Below are positions 10,193-19,209 of a DNA stretch of 20,000 nt, piece by piece. Position 1 is the stretch's first letter. Each line of letters starts with the position of its first letter. A program made the position numbers and the translations under genes. The notes under the pieces are model-generated. The model searched no databases and was not told the origin of the DNA. It saw nothing but the letters and a program-made list of their open reading frames with translations. Origin of the DNA: an uncultured virus (IMG/VR IMGVR_UViG_3300047550_002778) (taxonomy: Duplodnaviria > Heunggongvirae > Uroviricota > Caudoviricetes); the IMG/VR virus record IMGVR_UViG_3300047550_002778, positions 57,644-77,643 of that record, one strand, 5' to 3'.

Positions 10193-10220
10193 AAAAAGCC
10201 CCGCGCAGAGCGACGGAGCC
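10191..10220 (-). terminator. Terminator ending the tRNA/tmRNA transcript
   Basis: GGCTCCG-T-CGC-TCT-GCG-CGGGGCT then a T run; preceded by a further hairpin ATAACCC-AAT-GGGTTAT. Confidence 0.75.
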
Positions 10221-10252: not shown

Positions 10253-10637
10253 TGGTGGACGTGGCGAGAATCGAACTCGCGTCTTTAAGAATTGAACCAT
10301 ACCAGACTACACGCTTTTACAATTTGAATTTGTTAGAAAGTAAAATCAAAATTGTCAAAAATTTACTTCTTAAGATTTACATAAATTTCGATTGGAAGAG
10401 CAAATCAATCAACCAACCATAGTCCGATGATGACGTTTGTTTAACTATCGAACAATCATTAAACAAACGAGCAACCTTTTATTAGGCTGCAATTGCTACG
10501 ACATCATCATAAGAGAAGTCATAGCTAACTACGTTTTCTTCAGCAGTTATGTTTTGATAGACATTTAAAGAGGCCAACTATCATCCTCTGCGTGACTGAC
10601 ATGGACACATTTCTTAAATCGAAACCTGAACACGCCC
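10253..10637 (-). ncRNA. ssrA: tmRNA, 385 nt; tag (A)AEENVVSYDFSYDDVVAIAA* at 10544-10482
   Basis: Acceptor GGGCGTG/CACGTCC-ACCA with G3.U, GGTTTCGA 5' loop, TTTAAGAA/TTCTTAAA helix, T-arm GCGAG-TTCGATT-CTCGC, pk1-like GAGG/CCTC and GATAG/CTATC, ATAACT-GCT resume context, tag ending in IAA. Confidence 0.95.
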
Positions 10638-10753: not shown

Positions 10754-10827
10754 TGGAGCGGGTAGTGAGAATCGAACTCACACGTAGGCTTTGGAAGAGC
10801 CTCAGGCTACCATTACATCATACCCGC
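10754..10827 (-). tRNA. tRNA-Gly(TCC)
   Basis: GCGGGTA/TACCCGC-T-CCA; anticodon arm AGGCT-CTTCCAA-AGCCT; TTCGATT loop. Confidence 0.95.
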
Positions 10828-10838
10828 GTATTGTTTAT

Positions 10839-10866
10839 AGTCTACAATAATAAATAGAATGGTCAA
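10839..10866 (-). promoter_or_regulatory. Putative promoter for tRNA-Gly/tmRNA
   Basis: TTGACC-N16-TAGACT, with a TATTTATT motif nested in the spacer (10849-10856). Confidence 0.55.
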
Positions 10867-10890
10867 GACTAATATATCAATGATCAAAAT

Positions 10891-11634
10891 TTATTTAAAT
10901 AACATCCACTGATTATTATATACCAACACATCTTCCTTTAGAAATGATATTGGCGCCAATTTGTCTTTTATTTGATCTCTCAAAGTTAAATTAAGTGTAA
11001 ATGTTTTGGCTGCTCGAAGAACATCGTGCGTAACATCTGGGTGAGAAAAATCATCTCCAAACAACAAAGTGTTTGGTCCTAACAATTTATCCCAACATTC
11101 TACAATTTCAAGAAATGTTTCATTCTTACAATGAGAACTATCTAAATAAATTAAAGTGGGTAATGAAGAAATTGATTTATGTGTATTATACAATCTCTCC
11201 AAAAGATTTATTCCGGTGAATGCCGTGCAGTTAATAGGAACAATTTTATCTCTATATTGGTATGTATTTGCCAAAAATCTTTTATATATGGTTGGTATGC
11301 CATTTTCTAATCTCAGAAATCTATACCAATCTTGTAAAGTATATTCCAAATCCCACATGTTTACATCACCTGTAAATGGGTCTATACAAACTACATACGA
11401 ATCATTTAACTCTACTGTCTTAAATGACTCCAACATCTTTATACAACTATTGCCAACCATCGAACCAATCTCCAATACAAAATTTGGTTTAAAATGCTCG
11501 AACAAACAATCTAAAAGTGTTGAATCAATATTTGTATGTGGATAATTGTTGTCTATATACTTTTCTACTTCACAATTTGAATATGGAGTTTCATCTCTGT
11601 ATAGACGATAATTTAATTCAGTATAAATACTCAT
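10891..11634 (-). CDS. Class I SAM-dependent methyltransferase (Methyltransf_24-like)
   Basis: VLEIGSMVGNS, VCIDPF, LIYLDSSH, LLFGDDF motifs. Confidence 0.85.
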   Translation of the reverse strand: MSIYTELNYRLYRDETPYSNCEVEKYIDNNYPHTNIDSTLLDCLFEHFKPNFVLEIGSMVGNSCIKMLESFKTVELNDSYVVCIDPFTGDVNMWDLEYTLQDWYRFLRLENGIPTIYKRFLANTYQYRDKIVPINCTAFTGINLLERLYNTHKSISSLPTLIYLDSSHCKNETFLEIVECWDKLLGPNTLLFGDDFSHPDVTHDVLRAAKTFTLNLTLRDQIKDKLAPISFLKEDVLVYNNQWMLFK

Positions 11635-11640
11635 AAAATC

Positions 11641-11730
11641 AACCCTATCCTATCTGGAACAGATTCGTCCGGGTCAGACATACAGGGGTGTATCGTGTCC
11701 CTCACGCCGTGGCTAAACCACCACAAGATT
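11641..11730 (-). ncRNA. Candidate structured non-coding RNA (multi-branch, no CCA)
   Basis: GC-rich spacer with closing helix AATCTTGT/ATAGGGTT and internal arms GTGGT/GCCAC, AGGG/CCCT, TGTCTG/CAGATA. Confidence 0.45.
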
Positions 11731-11737
11731 TATAAAT

Positions 11738-11861
11738 TGGATGACCGTGACTTGCGAATATACGAGGATTTCACTAAGCGTTCCAAATGTCTCTCTCGTC
11801 AACGTCAGTCTCCTATACCCTCCTACGGGTATCGTGCTATAATTCTATACACTAACAATCA
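11738..11861 (-). ncRNA. Non-canonical tRNA-like RNA (124 nt) with greatly expanded T-arm
   Basis: Acceptor TGATTGT/ACGGTCA-T-CCA, D-arm GTGT/GCAC, anticodon-like arm ATACCC-GTAGGA-GGGTAT, and GACT/AGTC enclosing about 54 nt. Confidence 0.6.
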
Positions 11862-11864
11862 AAA

Positions 11865-11940
11865 TGGTCGGGATGGAGAATTTCGCAATCTCAACCTCCT
11901 GTCTCCAAAACAGGCCGTCTACTTTTGACATTACATCCCG
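11865..11940 (-). tRNA. tRNA-Pro(TGG), atypical D- and T-loops
   Basis: CGGGATG/CATCCCG-A-CCA; CCTGT-TTTGGAG-ACAGG; D-loop AAAAGTA; T-loop TGCGAAA. Confidence 0.8.
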
Positions 11941-11947
11941 AATAAAT

Positions 11948-12021
11948 TGGCAGGGGATAAGGGAATCGAACCCCTACAAGAAGATTCAAAGTCTTCCGCA
12001 CTACCATTATGCAAATCCCCA
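11948..12021 (-). tRNA. tRNA-Gln(TTG)
   Basis: GAAGA-CTTTGAA-TCTTC; T1.T72 mismatch; G73-CCA. Confidence 0.95.
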
Positions 12022-12030
12022 GTTATAAAC

Positions 12031-12159
12031 TTATTTTTTCTTTCTCTTAGAGTGAACGGTTTTAGAAGCCTTCACTCTGACTGTCTTTGTTCCTGTCTTG
12101 GTCTTAATTGTTCTATTATGACCTTTTCTGCTATGTGCTTTTACTCTTTTAAATCCCAT
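12031..12159 (-). CDS. Small basic peptide (42 aa)
   Basis: MGFKRVKAHSRKGHNRTIKTKTGTKTVRVKASKTVHSKRKKK; SD AAAGGA 5 nt before the ATG. Confidence 0.7.
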   Translation of the reverse strand: MGFKRVKAHSRKGHNRTIKTKTGTKTVRVKASKTVHSKRKKK

Positions 12160-12192
12160 AATATTCCTTTATATTAAAAAATTGATCGGTCT

Positions 12193-12237
12193 TACAAGAA
12201 GATTCAAAGTTTCCTACATTACCACAAATTTCCAGTT
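12193..12237 (-). pseudogene. Decayed copy of tRNA-Gln(TTG)
   Basis: 18-nt exact repeat tacaagaagattcaaagt (12193-12210 = 11975-11992) with degenerate similarity continuing to ccagtt; no T-arm. Confidence 0.7.
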
Positions 12238-12246
12238 GAAAAATTA

Positions 12247-12930
12247 TTAACGAATAATTGTTTTAAGTGTCGTGGTTGTCAGATCCATTTCGTTAACTGG
12301 AATTTTATTTTTATTTAAATGCCATTTAACAACATATTCATTTCTAAGTGGTGAATCTTGACCAGGCCAATTTGGTCCACGTAAATAATTTCTATATTCC
12401 ATGTCAGCAAATATGTAGTATATGTAATTTGAAAATATTTTACTGTATACTTCCATGTTGTTTATATTACCCACGGCAAACACATCACAGTATCCTCTAT
12501 GACATACTCTTGGATCAACACATGTTGACCACTTTGGTAAATTTATAACGTTTTTATCTAAACTATTTAGATCGTATACAAGATTATCATGATTTAAATC
12601 AAACCGTGTTCTAATTACAAAATCATAATTGTTAGATTTTTTAACAACCAAAAAAGATTGTCTAAGTGAATAATATTGGGATAAACTATTATGAATAGAT
12701 GTATTAGACCAAATATTACATTTCAATCCTCTTTCGTCAAATTCAATTTGATCGTCAATTTTATAATTAGCTGGTCGATATAAGTTTATTACATCTTCTT
12801 GTTGTGGATCAGACCATGAATGAAAATAAATATCACAATCATACTTGTCTAAGTAATTGCGTTTCAATGACTCAAAACTTCGTTTGTAATTGTTTCTAAA
12901 TTTTCCACTAAAACATATTGCTACTTTCAT
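12247..12930 (-). CDS. Putative glycosyltransferase-like protein of the 'MKVAICFSG..R' viral family
   Basis: MKVAICFSGKFR, DIYFHSW, YDFVIRTRFDL, D.FAVG...M..Y, NE...WHL motifs. Confidence 0.6.
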   Translation of the reverse strand: MKVAICFSGKFRNNYKRSFESLKRNYLDKYDCDIYFHSWSDPQQEDVINLYRPANYKIDDQIEFDERGLKCNIWSNTSIHNSLSQYYSLRQSFLVVKKSNNYDFVIRTRFDLNHDNLVYDLNSLDKNVINLPKWSTCVDPRVCHRGYCDVFAVGNINNMEVYSKIFSNYIYYIFADMEYRNYLRGPNWPGQDSPLRNEYVVKWHLNKNKIPVNEMDLTTTTLKTIIR

Positions 12931-12938
12931 AAATAAAT

Positions 12939-13012
12939 TGGAGCGGGTGGAGGGAATCGAACCCTCTCATCGTCCTTGGCAAGGATGTAGGCTACCGTTA
13001 CATCACACCCGC
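12939..13012 (-). tRNA. tRNA-Gly(GCC)
   Basis: GCGGGTG/CACCCGC-T-CCA; loop TTGCCAA. Confidence 0.95.
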
Positions 13013-13020
13013 GTTAAAAT

Positions 13021-13096
<76 letters not shown>

Positions 13097-13104
13097 ATAT
13101 AAAA

Positions 13105-13196
13105 TGGCGGAAAGGGAGGGATTCGAACCCTCGGTGGGTGTTTAAGCCCACAACAGTTTAGCAAACTGTCTCTTTAGACCACTCAGACACCTTTCC
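13105..13196 (-). tRNA. tRNA-Ser(GCT)
   Basis: Long variable arm; ACAGT-TTGCTAA-ACTGT; GCCA. Confidence 0.97.
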
Positions 13197-13203
13197 GTAA
13201 AAT

Positions 13204-13293
13204 TGGAGGAAGGAGAGGGATTCGAACCCCCGGAGGCTTTTACACCCCTGCGGTTTTCAAGACCACCGCCTTAGACCACTCAGCCACCCTTCC
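13204..13293 (-). tRNA. tRNA-Ser(TGA)
   Basis: Long variable arm; loop CTTGAAA; T73-CCA. Confidence 0.95.
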
Positions 13294-13392
13294 ATAAGGA
13301 ATTAAAAACTGGGTATGTGTGACTACACCCGAAAGGTCAATTACACTCAATGATCATACGACCAAATATGATTTTAAAGTCACTTTTTAATT

Positions 13393-13476
13393 TGGTGGGC
13401 ATAGAGGGACTTGAACCCCCACGGATTTCTCCACGAGCTTCTAAGACTCGCGTGTCTGCCATTTCACCATACGCCC
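13393..13476 (-). tRNA. tRNA-Leu(TAG)
   Basis: GGGCGTA/TATGCCC-ACCA; loop CTTAGAA; variable arm. Confidence 0.97.
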
Positions 13477-13481
13477 GAAAT

Positions 13482-13559
13482 TGGTCGGAGTGATAGGATT
13501 TGAACCTACGACATCTTGCTCCCAAAGCAAGCGCTCTAGCCAAGCTGAGCTACACTCCG
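13482..13559 (-). tRNA. tRNA-Pro(TGG), canonical
   Basis: CGGAGTG/CACTCCG-ACCA; loop TTTGGGA. Confidence 0.97.
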
Positions 13560-13568
13560 ATATTAAAA

Positions 13569-13643
13569 TGGTAGGCGGGAAAGGGATCGAACCTCCGACA
13601 ATCACGGTGTAAACGTGGTGCTCTACCACTGAGCTACCCGCCC
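13569..13643 (-). tRNA. tRNA-Val(TAC)
   Basis: GGGCGGG/CCCGCCT-ACCA; loop TTTACAC. Confidence 0.95.
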
Positions 13644-13668
13644 ATTTAAAAATTATTATTTTCTTAAT

Positions 13669-13772
13669 CCAGTTATCGCCAGTCGGGTTCTGCGCCGAGC
13701 ATATCACCCTCAGACCGATCAAGTGTTTTAACTTTCGTTGGGGACACCAGATAGAGTTTCAACCCCGAACAT
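13669..13772 (-). ncRNA. Candidate structured RNA at the head of the tRNA array
   Basis: GC-rich. Helices GTT.GGGG/CCCC.AAC, AGTTA/TAACT, TCGGTC/GACTGG, GGGT/ACCC, and a possible GGTGT/ACACT pseudoknot. Confidence 0.5.
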
Positions 13773-13778
13773 ATAATC

Positions 13779-13806
13779 ACTATACCACACCTTTTCTTAT
13801 TGTCAA
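13779..13806 (-). promoter_or_regulatory. Sigma70-like promoter reading into the tRNA array
   Basis: TTGACA-N16-TATAGT with TGn extension. Confidence 0.7.
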
Positions 13807-13811
13807 CGCCT

Positions 13812-13918
13812 AAAATCAAAAACCCATCATCTTTTTTGGATGACGGGTTGAATCTTTTAGAAGCAAACAACCTCGTCATCAATACCCCGATGGGGCTTGA
13901 CTTACTAGACTAGGTTGT
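13812..13918 (-). promoter_or_regulatory. Putative attenuator (segments 1-4) with intrinsic terminator
   Basis: 1=ACAACCTAGTC (13918-13908), 2=GATGACGAGGTTGT (13880-13867), 3=CAACCCGTCATC (13850-13839), 4=GATGATGGGTT (13831-13821) followed by TTTGATTTT. Confidence 0.75.
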
Positions 13919-13932
13919 GATGATAAAATCAT
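13879..13932 (-). CDS. Putative leader peptide MILSSQPSLVSQAPSGY
   Basis: ATG ATT TTA TCA TCA CAA CCT AGT CTA GTA AGT CAA GCC CCA TCG GGG TAT TGA TGA. It overlaps attenuator segment 1 and its stop lies on segment 2. Confidence 0.65.
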   Translation of the reverse strand: MILSSQPSLVSQAPSGY

Positions 13933-13984
13933 ATTTCTACTAATATATAGTGTTTTAAATTGAAATTCAATGAAATTTTTAAAT

Positions 13985-14014
13985 AAAAAAACCGCCGGTA
14001 TTACCCAGCGGTCT
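13985..14014 (-). terminator. Intrinsic terminator after the outer-membrane protein gene
   Basis: GACCGCTGG-GTAATA-CCGGCGGTT followed by TTTTTATTT. Confidence 0.85.
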
Positions 14015-14039
14015 GTATTGGTTTTATTTAAAATGACTA

Positions 14040-14744
14040 TTAGAAGGTCAACTTCAAACCAGCACTGTAAACTACATCATTATCAAAACGATTGACAGCA
14101 AATGCTCTTGATGCAGCTTCAAATGTTCCATTATGGAACCATCCAACTTCAGCAAATGGAGTTACAGAACCCCAAGCAAAAGTTACTGGACGAGTCAAAG
14201 AAGCCTTAGCGTTAAAAGCTTCATAACTAGTTGACTTACCCCATTCGACAGCAGGTGTCAAAACCAAACCAAATGGTAGTTTTTGAGCACGTTCTGCACC
14301 AACAAAGTAAGCATTCTGGTGCAACTCAAAGTTGAAAGCGCCACGAACATATGGAGTTACCCATGGGTTTTGTAGAGCCAACTTTACACCAGTTTCGGTA
14401 GAATTACCTAGAATGCTACCACCAGTTTGGTGACGAATAACACTGCCGTCTAGACGAGCAGTGAATTGATTCCAAGTATATAGGTTCTTTCCAGCACCTA
14501 CCAACCAGTGAGATTGATCTTGGTTACCATTTGCCAACAATGTGCCACCAACATATACATCAGCATACTTGAATGACTTCAATGCTCCAATACTTGCGTA
14601 TGGGAGATCTTGTGCGTAAGCAACACCATTGACAACATAATAGTTATTGTAACCACCCTCCAAAGAGAGGTTTGCAATATCTGCGGCACGTGCGACTGAC
14701 AATGCAGCAAACAGTGACATTACCAACAATACTAATTTCTTCAT
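14040..14744 (-). CDS. Outer-membrane beta-barrel protein (TorF/putative porin-like)
   Basis: Sec signal peptide MKKLVLLVMSLFAALSVARA, alternating amphipathic strands, C-terminal YSAGLKLTF beta-signal; SD AGAAGGA. Confidence 0.8.
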   Translation of the reverse strand: MKKLVLLVMSLFAALSVARAADIANLSLEGGYNNYYVVNGVAYAQDLPYASIGALKSFKYADVYVGGTLLANGNQDQSHWLVGAGKNLYTWNQFTARLDGSVIRHQTGGSILGNSTETGVKLALQNPWVTPYVRGAFNFELHQNAYFVGAERAQKLPFGLVLTPAVEWGKSTSYEAFNAKASLTRPVTFAWGSVTPFAEVGWFHNGTFEAASRAFAVNRFDNDVVYSAGLKLTF

Positions 14745-18537: not shown

Positions 18538-19209
18538 TTAAAGATTATAATTGGTTCGATACGTGGTTATAATCGCCCATTTGTTTTCTGGTTGAAATGC
18601 TTTTGGAAATTTTAAATAAGATGCGTGACTATCAGCAAAAATATAAGTAGACCCACCATTATGTTTCTTGAAATCTAACTCAGTCGCATCATTACCTTGT
18701 CCCTCAAAAATATCCATATAAAAATGTTTTGACTTACCCAACTTTTCACCAAACACAATCGTCTCGCTAACCAATGGTATTGAACTTGCCTTTACTGGTT
18801 CTTCCAGAACATCCCAGTCACCATCAAATAATTCGAAATAATAATCGTCAAATCCATTTATTATAAAACTTCTATTGACTCTATTTGCATTTGTTTCAAC
18901 CAAATTATTTGTAAACTTATCCACTGGACAAACCAATACATTTTGACTTTCATAATATGGTTTTAATGCAACTGGCCATTGATTAGTTAAACTCCTTGGT
19001 GGTATACTATCATTATAATCAATTTTATATTGTTCTAAAGCAATACCCAATTGTCTACTATTATTCAAACACTTTATTTGTTGAGCTTTACTTTTAGCAC
19101 CACTCAAAGCCGGTAATAACATACCTGCCAATATTGCAATTATAGCAATTACTACCAATAATTCTATCAATGTAAATGCCAAAGATTTATTTTTATTTAA
19201 TTTTTTCAT
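18538..19209 (-). CDS. Prepilin-type N-terminal cleavage/methylation protein with H-X9-DG-like C-terminal motif
   Basis: [45 protein letters not shown]...[19 protein letters not shown]. Confidence 0.92.

Follow-up and report, generated by a model that had tools for sequence, protein, structure and literature searches.

The window analysed here is a 20,000-nt stretch of the virus record IMGVR_UViG_3300047550_002778 (Caudoviricetes), whose source is described as an uncultured giant freshwater phage. It carries an array of transfer RNA (tRNA) genes closed by a transfer-messenger RNA (tmRNA) gene. Upstream of this array are found a short leader open reading frame (ORF), a set of alternative RNA helices ending in an intrinsic terminator, a strong promoter and a conserved RNA; leader, attenuator, promoter, conserved RNA, tRNA array and tmRNA all lie on the minus strand. 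An initial annotation had proposed that leader and helices together sense the supply of tRNAs. From our structural and comparative analyses, we consider it likely that they form a ribosome-mediated (leader-peptide) transcription attenuator that contains test codons of the tRNA block following it. The features of the locus, in the order of transcription, are the following.

14744–14040, minus strand: ORF of 234 amino acids (aa) upstream of the leader unit (ORF list).
13989–14014, minus strand: intrinsic terminator of the 234-aa ORF (terminator scan; 10 pairs and a T-run).
13942–13970, minus strand: putative leader promoter, weak and sigma70-like, TTGAAT-17-TATATT (consensus scan; 9/12 matches).
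13876–13932, minus strand: leader ORF MILSSQPSLVSQAPSGY, 17 codons and tandem TGA stops (read from the sequence; ATG at 13932–13930, TGA TGA at 13881–13876).
13908–13918, minus strand: segment 1 (ACAACCTAGTC), under codons 5–9, paired with segment 2 in the minimum free energy (MFE) fold.
13867–13880, minus strand: segment 2 (GATGACGAGGTTGT), its 5' end overlapping the stop codons; pairs with segment 1 or segment 3 (folding and swap test).
13839–13850, minus strand: segment 3 (CAACCCGTCATC), 3' arm of the antiterminator and 5' arm of the terminator (terminator scan and folding).
13818–13831, minus strand: segment 4 (GATGATGGGTT) with T-run, 3' arm of the terminator; paired arm 13831–13821 (terminator scan; 11 pairs).
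13779–13806, minus strand: array promoter, strong sigma70-type with extended -10, TTGACA-16-TGnTATAGT (11/12 consensus matches).
13665–13768, minus strand: conserved pseudoknotted RNA of ~105 nt, ending just before tRNA-Val (near-invariant in relatives; no Rfam match).
10754–13643, minus strand: nine tRNA genes, Val-TAC, Pro-TGG, Leu-TAG, Ser-TGA, Ser-GCT, Ala-TGC, Gly-GCC, Gln-TTG and Gly-TCC (ARAGORN, Rfam).
10253–10637, minus strand: tmRNA closing the array (ARAGORN; Rfam RF00023, 136 bits).
10197–10220, minus strand: terminator 3' of the tmRNA, the likely end of the unit (terminator scan).

The MFE fold of 13950–13812 has an energy of -40.6 kcal/mol (z = -4.8, equalled by 0/200 shuffles) and shows the 1:2 and 3:4 hairpins. 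Without segments 1 and 4, the window sequence folds into a 12-bp 2:3 helix of -17.7 kcal/mol. The terminator at 13849–13821 was recovered by the terminator scan with 11 pairs and a T-run, and its 3:4 energy is -15.0 kcal/mol. Both the leader ORF with its tandem TGA (13932–13876) and the three mutually exclusive helices with their T-run (13932–13818) were found as first annotated, with segment 1 under codons 5–9 and the stop codons overlapping segment 2. The element thus has four segments with exclusive 1:2, 2:3 and 3:4 pairings, the last of which is an intrinsic terminator with a U-run. Its stop codons are placed for coverage of segment 2 by a ribosome, the regulatory codons lie under or before segment 1, and the leader is enriched in codons for the amino acids of the genes that it would regulate, as in known attenuators of this class.

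Relatives were recruited by two anchors, a neighbouring protein and the invariant RNA. The 57 loci obtained from viral and metagenome contigs make, with the window, 58 sources with 34 distinct upstream variants and 30 distinct leader-attenuators. These 30 comprise at least five diverged leader lineages: window-like leaders of 17 codons; leaders of 18–19 codons (MKYSLQPSSLAVAGQPSLT and kin); a leader of 17 codons with wholly different stems (L045); one of 24 codons (L024); and leaders of 35 codons (L034, 3777–3944; L056, 1699–1866). Despite this strong divergence and a leader length of 17, 18, 19, 24 or 35 codons, frame 0 of the leader is open in 30/30 distinct variants, compared with 0/30 for frame +1 and 5/30 for frame +2. 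Within the 17-codon lineage, the variable sites number 8, 11 and 10 at the first, second and third codon positions, so that there is no third-position excess, and replacements are radical (S/Q/V/K/F at codon 4; A/S/L/F/V at codon 13). This is not the signature of a small protein gene under purifying selection on its peptide. The absence of a third-position excess, combined with the replacements within the amino-acid set described below, indicates that the set of amino acids is kept, not the peptide sequence.

The helices are conserved in the same relatives. The 2:3 helix can be formed in 30/30 variants, with energies of -13.4 to -24.0 kcal/mol, and the terminators are comparable (-13.2 to -18.9 kcal/mol). 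Column-wise covariation was abandoned for the attenuator, because MAFFT misregisters the helices of diverged lineages and bulges slide; per-sequence folding and a swap test were used instead. In the swap test, segments were exchanged among eight lineage representatives and the duplex energies of cognate and non-cognate pairs were compared. Cognate 2:3 pairs had a mean of -18.0 kcal/mol versus -10.5 kcal/mol for non-cognate pairs, and the cognate pair was the best in 6/8; for 3:4 the means were -17.3 and -9.3 kcal/mol. Compensatory change of the helices is therefore present in the relatives. The 1:2 pairing is not lineage-specific (-19.0 versus -17.1 kcal/mol, cognate best in 1/8), because its CAACC/GGTTG core is conserved. 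Stems that remain complementary while differing between lineages are, for 2:3, GATGACG.GGTTG/CAACC.CGTCATC, GACCGATGGTT/AACCGTTGGTC, GATAGGTG.GGTT/AACC.CACCTATC and GTCTGATGGG/CCCATCAGAC. Segment 2 of several lineages extends its pairing into the terminator loop, to bases not engaged by segment 4, which points to selection on the 2:3 helix itself. Shuffling of segment 2 alone was a weak control (z from -0.8 to -5.4), since G-rich shuffles still pair with segment 3.

The composition of the leader corresponds to that of the array. Codons 4–16 use only Ser, Gln, Pro, Leu, Val, Ala and Gly, and ARAGORN and Rfam agree with the initial annotation that these are the seven amino acids of the array; the ten tRNAs that it had counted are nine tRNA genes and one tmRNA. 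Across the whole window leader, 14/16 residues belong to the set (binomial tail 4e-4 against the 44 long ORFs of the contig, in which 44% of residues belong to these seven amino acids), and 0/5000 stop-free shuffles of the same letters reached 14 residues in the set (mean 7.0). Runs of at least 13 set residues also occur elsewhere, with 15 in 155,282 six-frame positions, so that the window alone is only suggestive and the relatives are decisive. In 11/13 variants with arrays complete to the tmRNA, 81–94% of leader residues fall in the set of their own array. Of the non-synonymous alternatives at codons 5–16, 13/16 stay in the set versus 45% expected (P = 0.0017). Residues outside the set are mostly found at codons 2–4 and 17, outside the predicted sensing window, mainly at positions from which a stalled ribosome would be unable to release segment 2.

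The strongest support comes from a second, paralogous leader-attenuator. In a complete relative, 295,831 bp long, 31 tRNA hits are distributed over three clusters. Its cluster ii encodes tRNAs for His, Arg, Glu, Trp, Asn, Tyr, Val, Thr and Cys, to which other relatives add Phe, Lys, Ile and Asp, and upstream of this cluster lies a leader-attenuator with the ORF MRVHYTNIKRWDTFTNCECVDGDIV. The unit consists of a -10-like box, an ATG, an ORF of 24–28 codons, a long 1:2 hairpin, a 2:3 helix of about -20 to -22 kcal/mol and a terminator, 3' of which follow promoters and then a paralog of the conserved RNA. It was also found in two other records examined, and a regular expression for it matched 15/17 further viral-contig loci; of the remaining two, one was recognised on visual inspection, its stems carrying compensating changes, and the other is truncated. 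All 11 distinct variants have an open ORF, whose last seven codons contain segment 2 and also most of the residues outside the set.

The letters used by this second leader (H, Y, T, N, I, K, R, W, D, F, C, E and V) are the amino acids served by the cluster ii tRNAs, and they include Trp, Cys and His, each of which makes up ~1% of the proteome. In a reciprocal test on cluster-specific residues, the 2 x 2 table for the complete relative was [[14,1],[1,13]] (Fisher p = 2.9e-6), and two other genomes gave Fisher p values of 1.1e-3 and 0.02. In all three genomes leader 1 fits cluster i and leader 2 fits cluster ii. When its own letters were shuffled, leader 2, with 16/24 residues in the set, was reached by 58/5000 shuffles (mean 10.1); against the union of cluster ii amino acids it has 23/24 residues in the set, reached by 9/5000 shuffles (mean 16.9). 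Because letter-preserving shuffles seldom reach the observed match, base composition is ruled out as the explanation of the correspondence between leaders and clusters. Both of the comparisons on which the initial annotation had staked the attenuator interpretation, conservation of ORF and helices and co-variation of leaders with arrays, thus came out in its favour.

How the leader would be transcribed and translated can be judged from its surroundings. The -10-like box of the putative leader promoter ends 9 nt before the ATG in the window and 5–13 nt before it among relatives. Such a box lies 4–14 nt upstream of the ATG in 24/29 variants, with a TTG hexamer 16–18 nt further up in 19/29. The ATG close behind the box suggests a leaderless or near-leaderless leader messenger RNA (mRNA). 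The lack of a Shine–Dalgarno (SD) sequence, already raised as a caveat in the initial annotation, is real and presents no obstacle, because SD sequences are rare in the long ORFs of the contig and the ATG lies near a -10-like box. Contig-wide, an SD-like word at -20 to -4 was found in only 8/44 ORFs of at least 200 aa, and many ORFs begin a few bases 3' of an AT-rich ATATTTAT-like box, which hints that SD-independent or leaderless initiation may be the rule in this phage.

We propose that the phage probably raises transcription of the tRNA block when ribosomes read the listed codons slowly. A short mRNA would arise from the promoter-like box and start at, or a few bases before, the ATG. With ample charged tRNAs, the ribosome would reach the tandem stops and cover segment 2, allowing the 3:4 terminator to form, and the terminated transcript would end at the T-run ~12 nt before the array promoter. 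If charged Ser, Gln, Pro, Leu, Val or Ala tRNA became short, the ribosome would stall at about codons 4–13 and melt the 1:2 hairpin, leaving segment 2 free. The 2:3 helix could then form before segment 4 is made, and the polymerase would continue. Such antiterminated transcription could stem from the leader promoter or from upstream genes, and would continue beyond the array promoter to transcribe the conserved RNA along with the nine tRNA genes and the tmRNA. A basal supply would come from the array promoter, with the attenuator adding to it on demand; since the products would relieve the stall, the loop would constitute direct product feedback. That host anticodon nucleases induce the array, as also suggested in the initial annotation, is pure conjecture.

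Several findings weigh against this interpretation. The foremost is the array promoter, noted in the initial annotation as a sigma70-like sequence just after the terminator, and found here to have 11/12 consensus matches and to be general: TTGACA-N16/17-TGnTAnnnT lies between terminator and array in 32/32 variants, including a leaderless lineage. In the attenuator class, the regulated genes depend on read-through and have no intervening promoter, a property that this element does not share. With an intervening promoter in all variants, the array would be expressed without read-through and an attenuator could only add to the basal supply; the gain from the switch may be small. Internal promoters occur in classical attenuated operons as well, so that the intervening promoter speaks for a smaller effect more than against the mechanism as such. 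In the leaderless lineage, the sixth (L035), array promoter, conserved RNA and tRNAs are all present; in this locus (reverse strand, ~770–1100) the terminator of the upstream gene abuts the array promoter. A recognisable -35 is missing from the leader promoter in 10/29 variants, and cluster iii of the complete relative has no leader-attenuator unit.

The remaining points on this side concern the match between leader and array. The correspondence between codons and anticodons claimed initially stands at the level of amino acids and not at that of synonymous choice. By manual count, standard wobble indeed allows the encoded anticodons to read 11/13 of codons 4–16, all except CCT and GCC, but 11/14 matches compare with 9.2 expected from the codon usage of the phage, which is not significant (P = 0.19). 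TCA is retained in leaders of arrays that have no tRNA-Ser(TGA). The leader of L006, for which ARAGORN found no Ser tRNA, keeps S and Q, with 8/16 residues in the set, and that of L015, with no Ser or Gln tRNA by ARAGORN, likewise keeps both, with 9/18. Codon 4 is frequently outside the set (F, I, K or N in 9/18 of the seventeen-codon variants). Finally, the 35-codon leaders are extended at the N-terminus by a stretch in which K, T, F, Y, N, E and D are frequent and which shows no enrichment for the tRNAs identified in that part of the array which could be read. Lys, Glu, Met, Ile and Leu tRNAs, which the complete relative has in a third cluster of their own, are also found in the array of this lineage.

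One alternative is that the hairpin and T-run serve only as an insulator that stops transcription coming from upstream genes, or a small stand-alone transcript, ahead of the array promoter, with the small ORF and its composition playing no part in control. The general presence of a strong array promoter and the existence of L035 speak for this explanation, and some lineages have an upstream gene that extends as far as the leader promoter, where a stop signal would be useful in any case. It leaves unexplained that the ORF is open in every variant of leader 1 and of leader 2, that segments 2 and 3 have co-evolved, loop bases included, and that two paralogous leaders are each written in the amino acids of their own cluster. 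We therefore regard a mere insulator as unlikely.

A further alternative accepts the attenuator and assigns it an output other than more tRNA, in which a general sensor of translation or amino acids would act on the adjacent promoter, through interference or occlusion by the polymerase reading through, or would produce a 5'-extended form of the conserved RNA. The arrangement of the locus lends itself to this. The distance from the terminator T-run to the -35 hexamer is ~11–12 nt in the window and 1–28 nt across lineages, and the conserved RNA starts approximately at the expected start site of the array promoter, so that read-through would alter its 5' end. This RNA, of ~105–125 nt, heads each tRNA block, belongs to two paralogous families (paralog at L058, minus strand, ~3630–3505; L060, 870–1000; L061, 1060–1185) and is near-invariant among relatives. 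In 17 sequences, 23 pairs are formed in 99.5% of cells, with seven pairs changed on both sides, and two crossing helices make a pseudoknot. The RNA has no match in Rfam; a processive antitermination signal, a processing signal or a small RNA released by RNase P are ideas as to its role.

Data from RNA libraries bear on the same region. They consist of Logan contigs of four metatranscriptome runs, stem from relatives 88–95% alike and may include DNA carry-over. The contigs extend over tRNAs and the conserved RNA and through the promoter region as far as 13825; transcript starts, ends and strand cannot be read from them. No contig was found on 13851–14100, where contigs cannot show absence. Contigs of runs X17 and X19, from two studies, both span the array promoter (window 13713–13825) and both stop at 13825, in the 3' arm of the terminator. 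This shared end could reflect read-through or processed RNA, an assembly break due to strain variation, or DNA carry-over. Running from 13825 across the promoter into the conserved RNA, the two contigs are compatible with another output of the attenuator, subject to the same possible carry-over. A general translation sensor would, however, have no need of amino acids that match a specific block, and read-through transcripts would still carry the tRNAs, which makes this alternative quite improbable in our view. That the leader encodes a functional micro-peptide, with helices that are incidental or stabilise the message, is very improbable: ATG, stop and the 17-codon length are conserved in most variants and a QPS motif recurs, but the even distribution of variable sites, the radical replacements at codons 4 and 13, the length spread of 17–35 codons and the unrelated peptide of the paralogous leader all argue against it.

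The leader-peptide attenuator remains the interpretation that we favour, and a number of observations on its surroundings complete the description of these loci. The parent contig is 77.6 kb long, has a G+C content of 35% and is one piece of the virus record; family scans of its proteins identified PhoH, Hsp20 and tail-fibre domains, among others. No similar phage was found among 50,697 deposited phage records by blastn of the region or tblastn of a neighbouring 856-aa ORF. Two ORFs lie inside the tRNA array: one at 12247–12930 (minus strand) is a member of phrog_13607 with no assigned function, and one at 10891–11634 (minus strand) encodes a protein with a Methyltransf_24 domain. Elsewhere in the window, a 223-aa ORF (18538–19209, minus strand) has a type IV pilin-like N-terminal methylation motif (PF07963), here in a phage.

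In the relatives, the spot before tRNA-Arg(TCT) of cluster iii is occupied by a conserved 67-aa ORF (MKIKMLKNIDVD...; L059, 1296–1500; L056, 3417–3638). It starts 6 nt after a -10 box in one phage and has a strong SD in another, and it is accompanied by repeated promoters and no terminator switch. No leader was found in the 525 nt upstream of the part of cluster ii present in L006, since the actual leader 2 is located still farther from the cluster. For several relatives, ARAGORN predicts in cluster ii a conserved tRNA whose anticodon has four bases (ctct) and to which no amino acid is assigned (L058, reverse strand, 1925–2000; L060, 1227–1302; also L062, L064, L065, L076 and L077), which could be a frameshift-reading tRNA or a miscall. 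Rfam tRNA matches of 102–123 nt in cluster ii of G001 (record positions 199395–199496 and 199599–199721), L058 and L060, for which the intron mode of ARAGORN gives Asn and Phe, suggest intron-bearing tRNA genes in these relatives.

To our knowledge, the control of phage tRNA genes is essentially unknown, and debate has so far been about why such genes are carried, whether for codon compensation or for replacement of tRNAs that host defences destroy. A translated sensor of the amino acids of a tRNA block would show that a phage monitors how fast those very codons are decoded, and would open the debate to experiment, by asking which starvation, which nuclease or which stage of infection opens which attenuator. 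Leader-peptide attenuation, known from textbooks for amino-acid operons and a few others, would be extended to stable-RNA genes, in a direct loop from tRNA through ribosome speed to tRNA transcription and with up to ~thirteen amino acids per leader. The two paralogous units would be a natural swap experiment and would offer compact, codon-programmable sensors of tRNA availability. It is quite possible, if somewhat short of probable, that giant phages run a modular, demand-driven tRNA supply, in which the test gene of each block lists its amino acids, shortages are signalled by the host ribosome and only the block in short supply is topped up, with the tmRNA in the case of block i. The conserved pseudoknotted RNA heading each block may be a further part of the module. 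If this is true, it would constitute direct product-feedback attenuation, not known to have been described for stable-RNA genes, and a built-in alarm against host defences that cleave or deplete tRNAs.

In those parts of the sources available to us, phage tRNA arrays are viewed as codon compensation or as replacement of tRNAs cut by defences (PMC10264068, PMC11555353). The array described here resembles those arrays in belonging to a large phage and in its possible role in sustaining translation when host tRNAs are short or cleaved. As far as could be seen, both sources concern the roles of tRNAs and not the control of their genes; in the main text of PMC10264068, the terms attenuat-, leader, terminator and promoter do not occur. 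Attenuat-, leader (or leader peptide) and terminator are absent from the main text of two papers on phage tRNAs. Our search of the full-text literature found no description of leader-peptide attenuation of tRNA genes or of phage tRNA arrays.

Comparison with Rfam is consistent with an element of separate origin. No leader family (Trp_leader, His_leader, Leu_leader, Thr_leader and the like) was found in the window at gathering score, the sole Trp_leader row having 14.9 bits against a cut-off of 41 bits and lying on the terminator of the upstream gene. Judged by its sequence, the element is analogous and not homologous to the known leader families. Similarly, no T-box model matched 13600–14100 even at E values up to 10. 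The element is like T-box riboswitches in that read-through would be tied to the state of tRNA via competing antiterminator and terminator helices; T-boxes bind uncharged tRNA without translation, use one specifier codon and control aminoacyl-tRNA synthetase or amino-acid genes, whereas a conserved ORF is present here.

Bacterial operons for ribosomal RNA (rRNA) and tRNA have tandem P1–P2 promoters under stringent or growth-rate control. The phage locus resembles them in having two tandem promoters before a stable-RNA operon, one predicted to be regulated by demand and the other more constitutive. It differs in that output from the upstream promoter would be gated by a translated attenuator, whereas guanosine tetraphosphate (ppGpp) and DksA act on P1–P2 at initiation. 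The pheM leader attenuator controls the pheST operon, which encodes phenylalanyl-tRNA synthetase. As with pheM, leader-peptide attenuation would here be applied to genes of the translation apparatus and not to biosynthesis; pheM senses one amino acid and regulates a protein, whereas the regulated products here would be the tRNAs themselves.

The closest parallels are the multivalent leader attenuators of enterobacteria, such as the ilvGMEDA leader with codons for Ile, Leu and Val and the thr leader with codons for Thr and Ile. Shared with these are a short leader ORF, codons for more than one amino acid, exclusive 1:2, 2:3 and 3:4 pairings, an intrinsic terminator and a stop codon that would mask segment 2. 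In contrast to the ilv and thr attenuators, the phage unit precedes tRNA and tmRNA genes and not genes for enzymes, so that the product would act directly on the sensor. Instead of runs of codons for one to three amino acids, leader 1 lists six or seven and leader 2 about thirteen, once or a few times each. The unit is furthermore phage-borne, has an apparently leaderless mRNA and is separated from its genes by a strong promoter. The leader-attenuator described here appears to be a variation on a known type of control, and its interpretation as an attenuator is supported by comparative evidence from the relatives.

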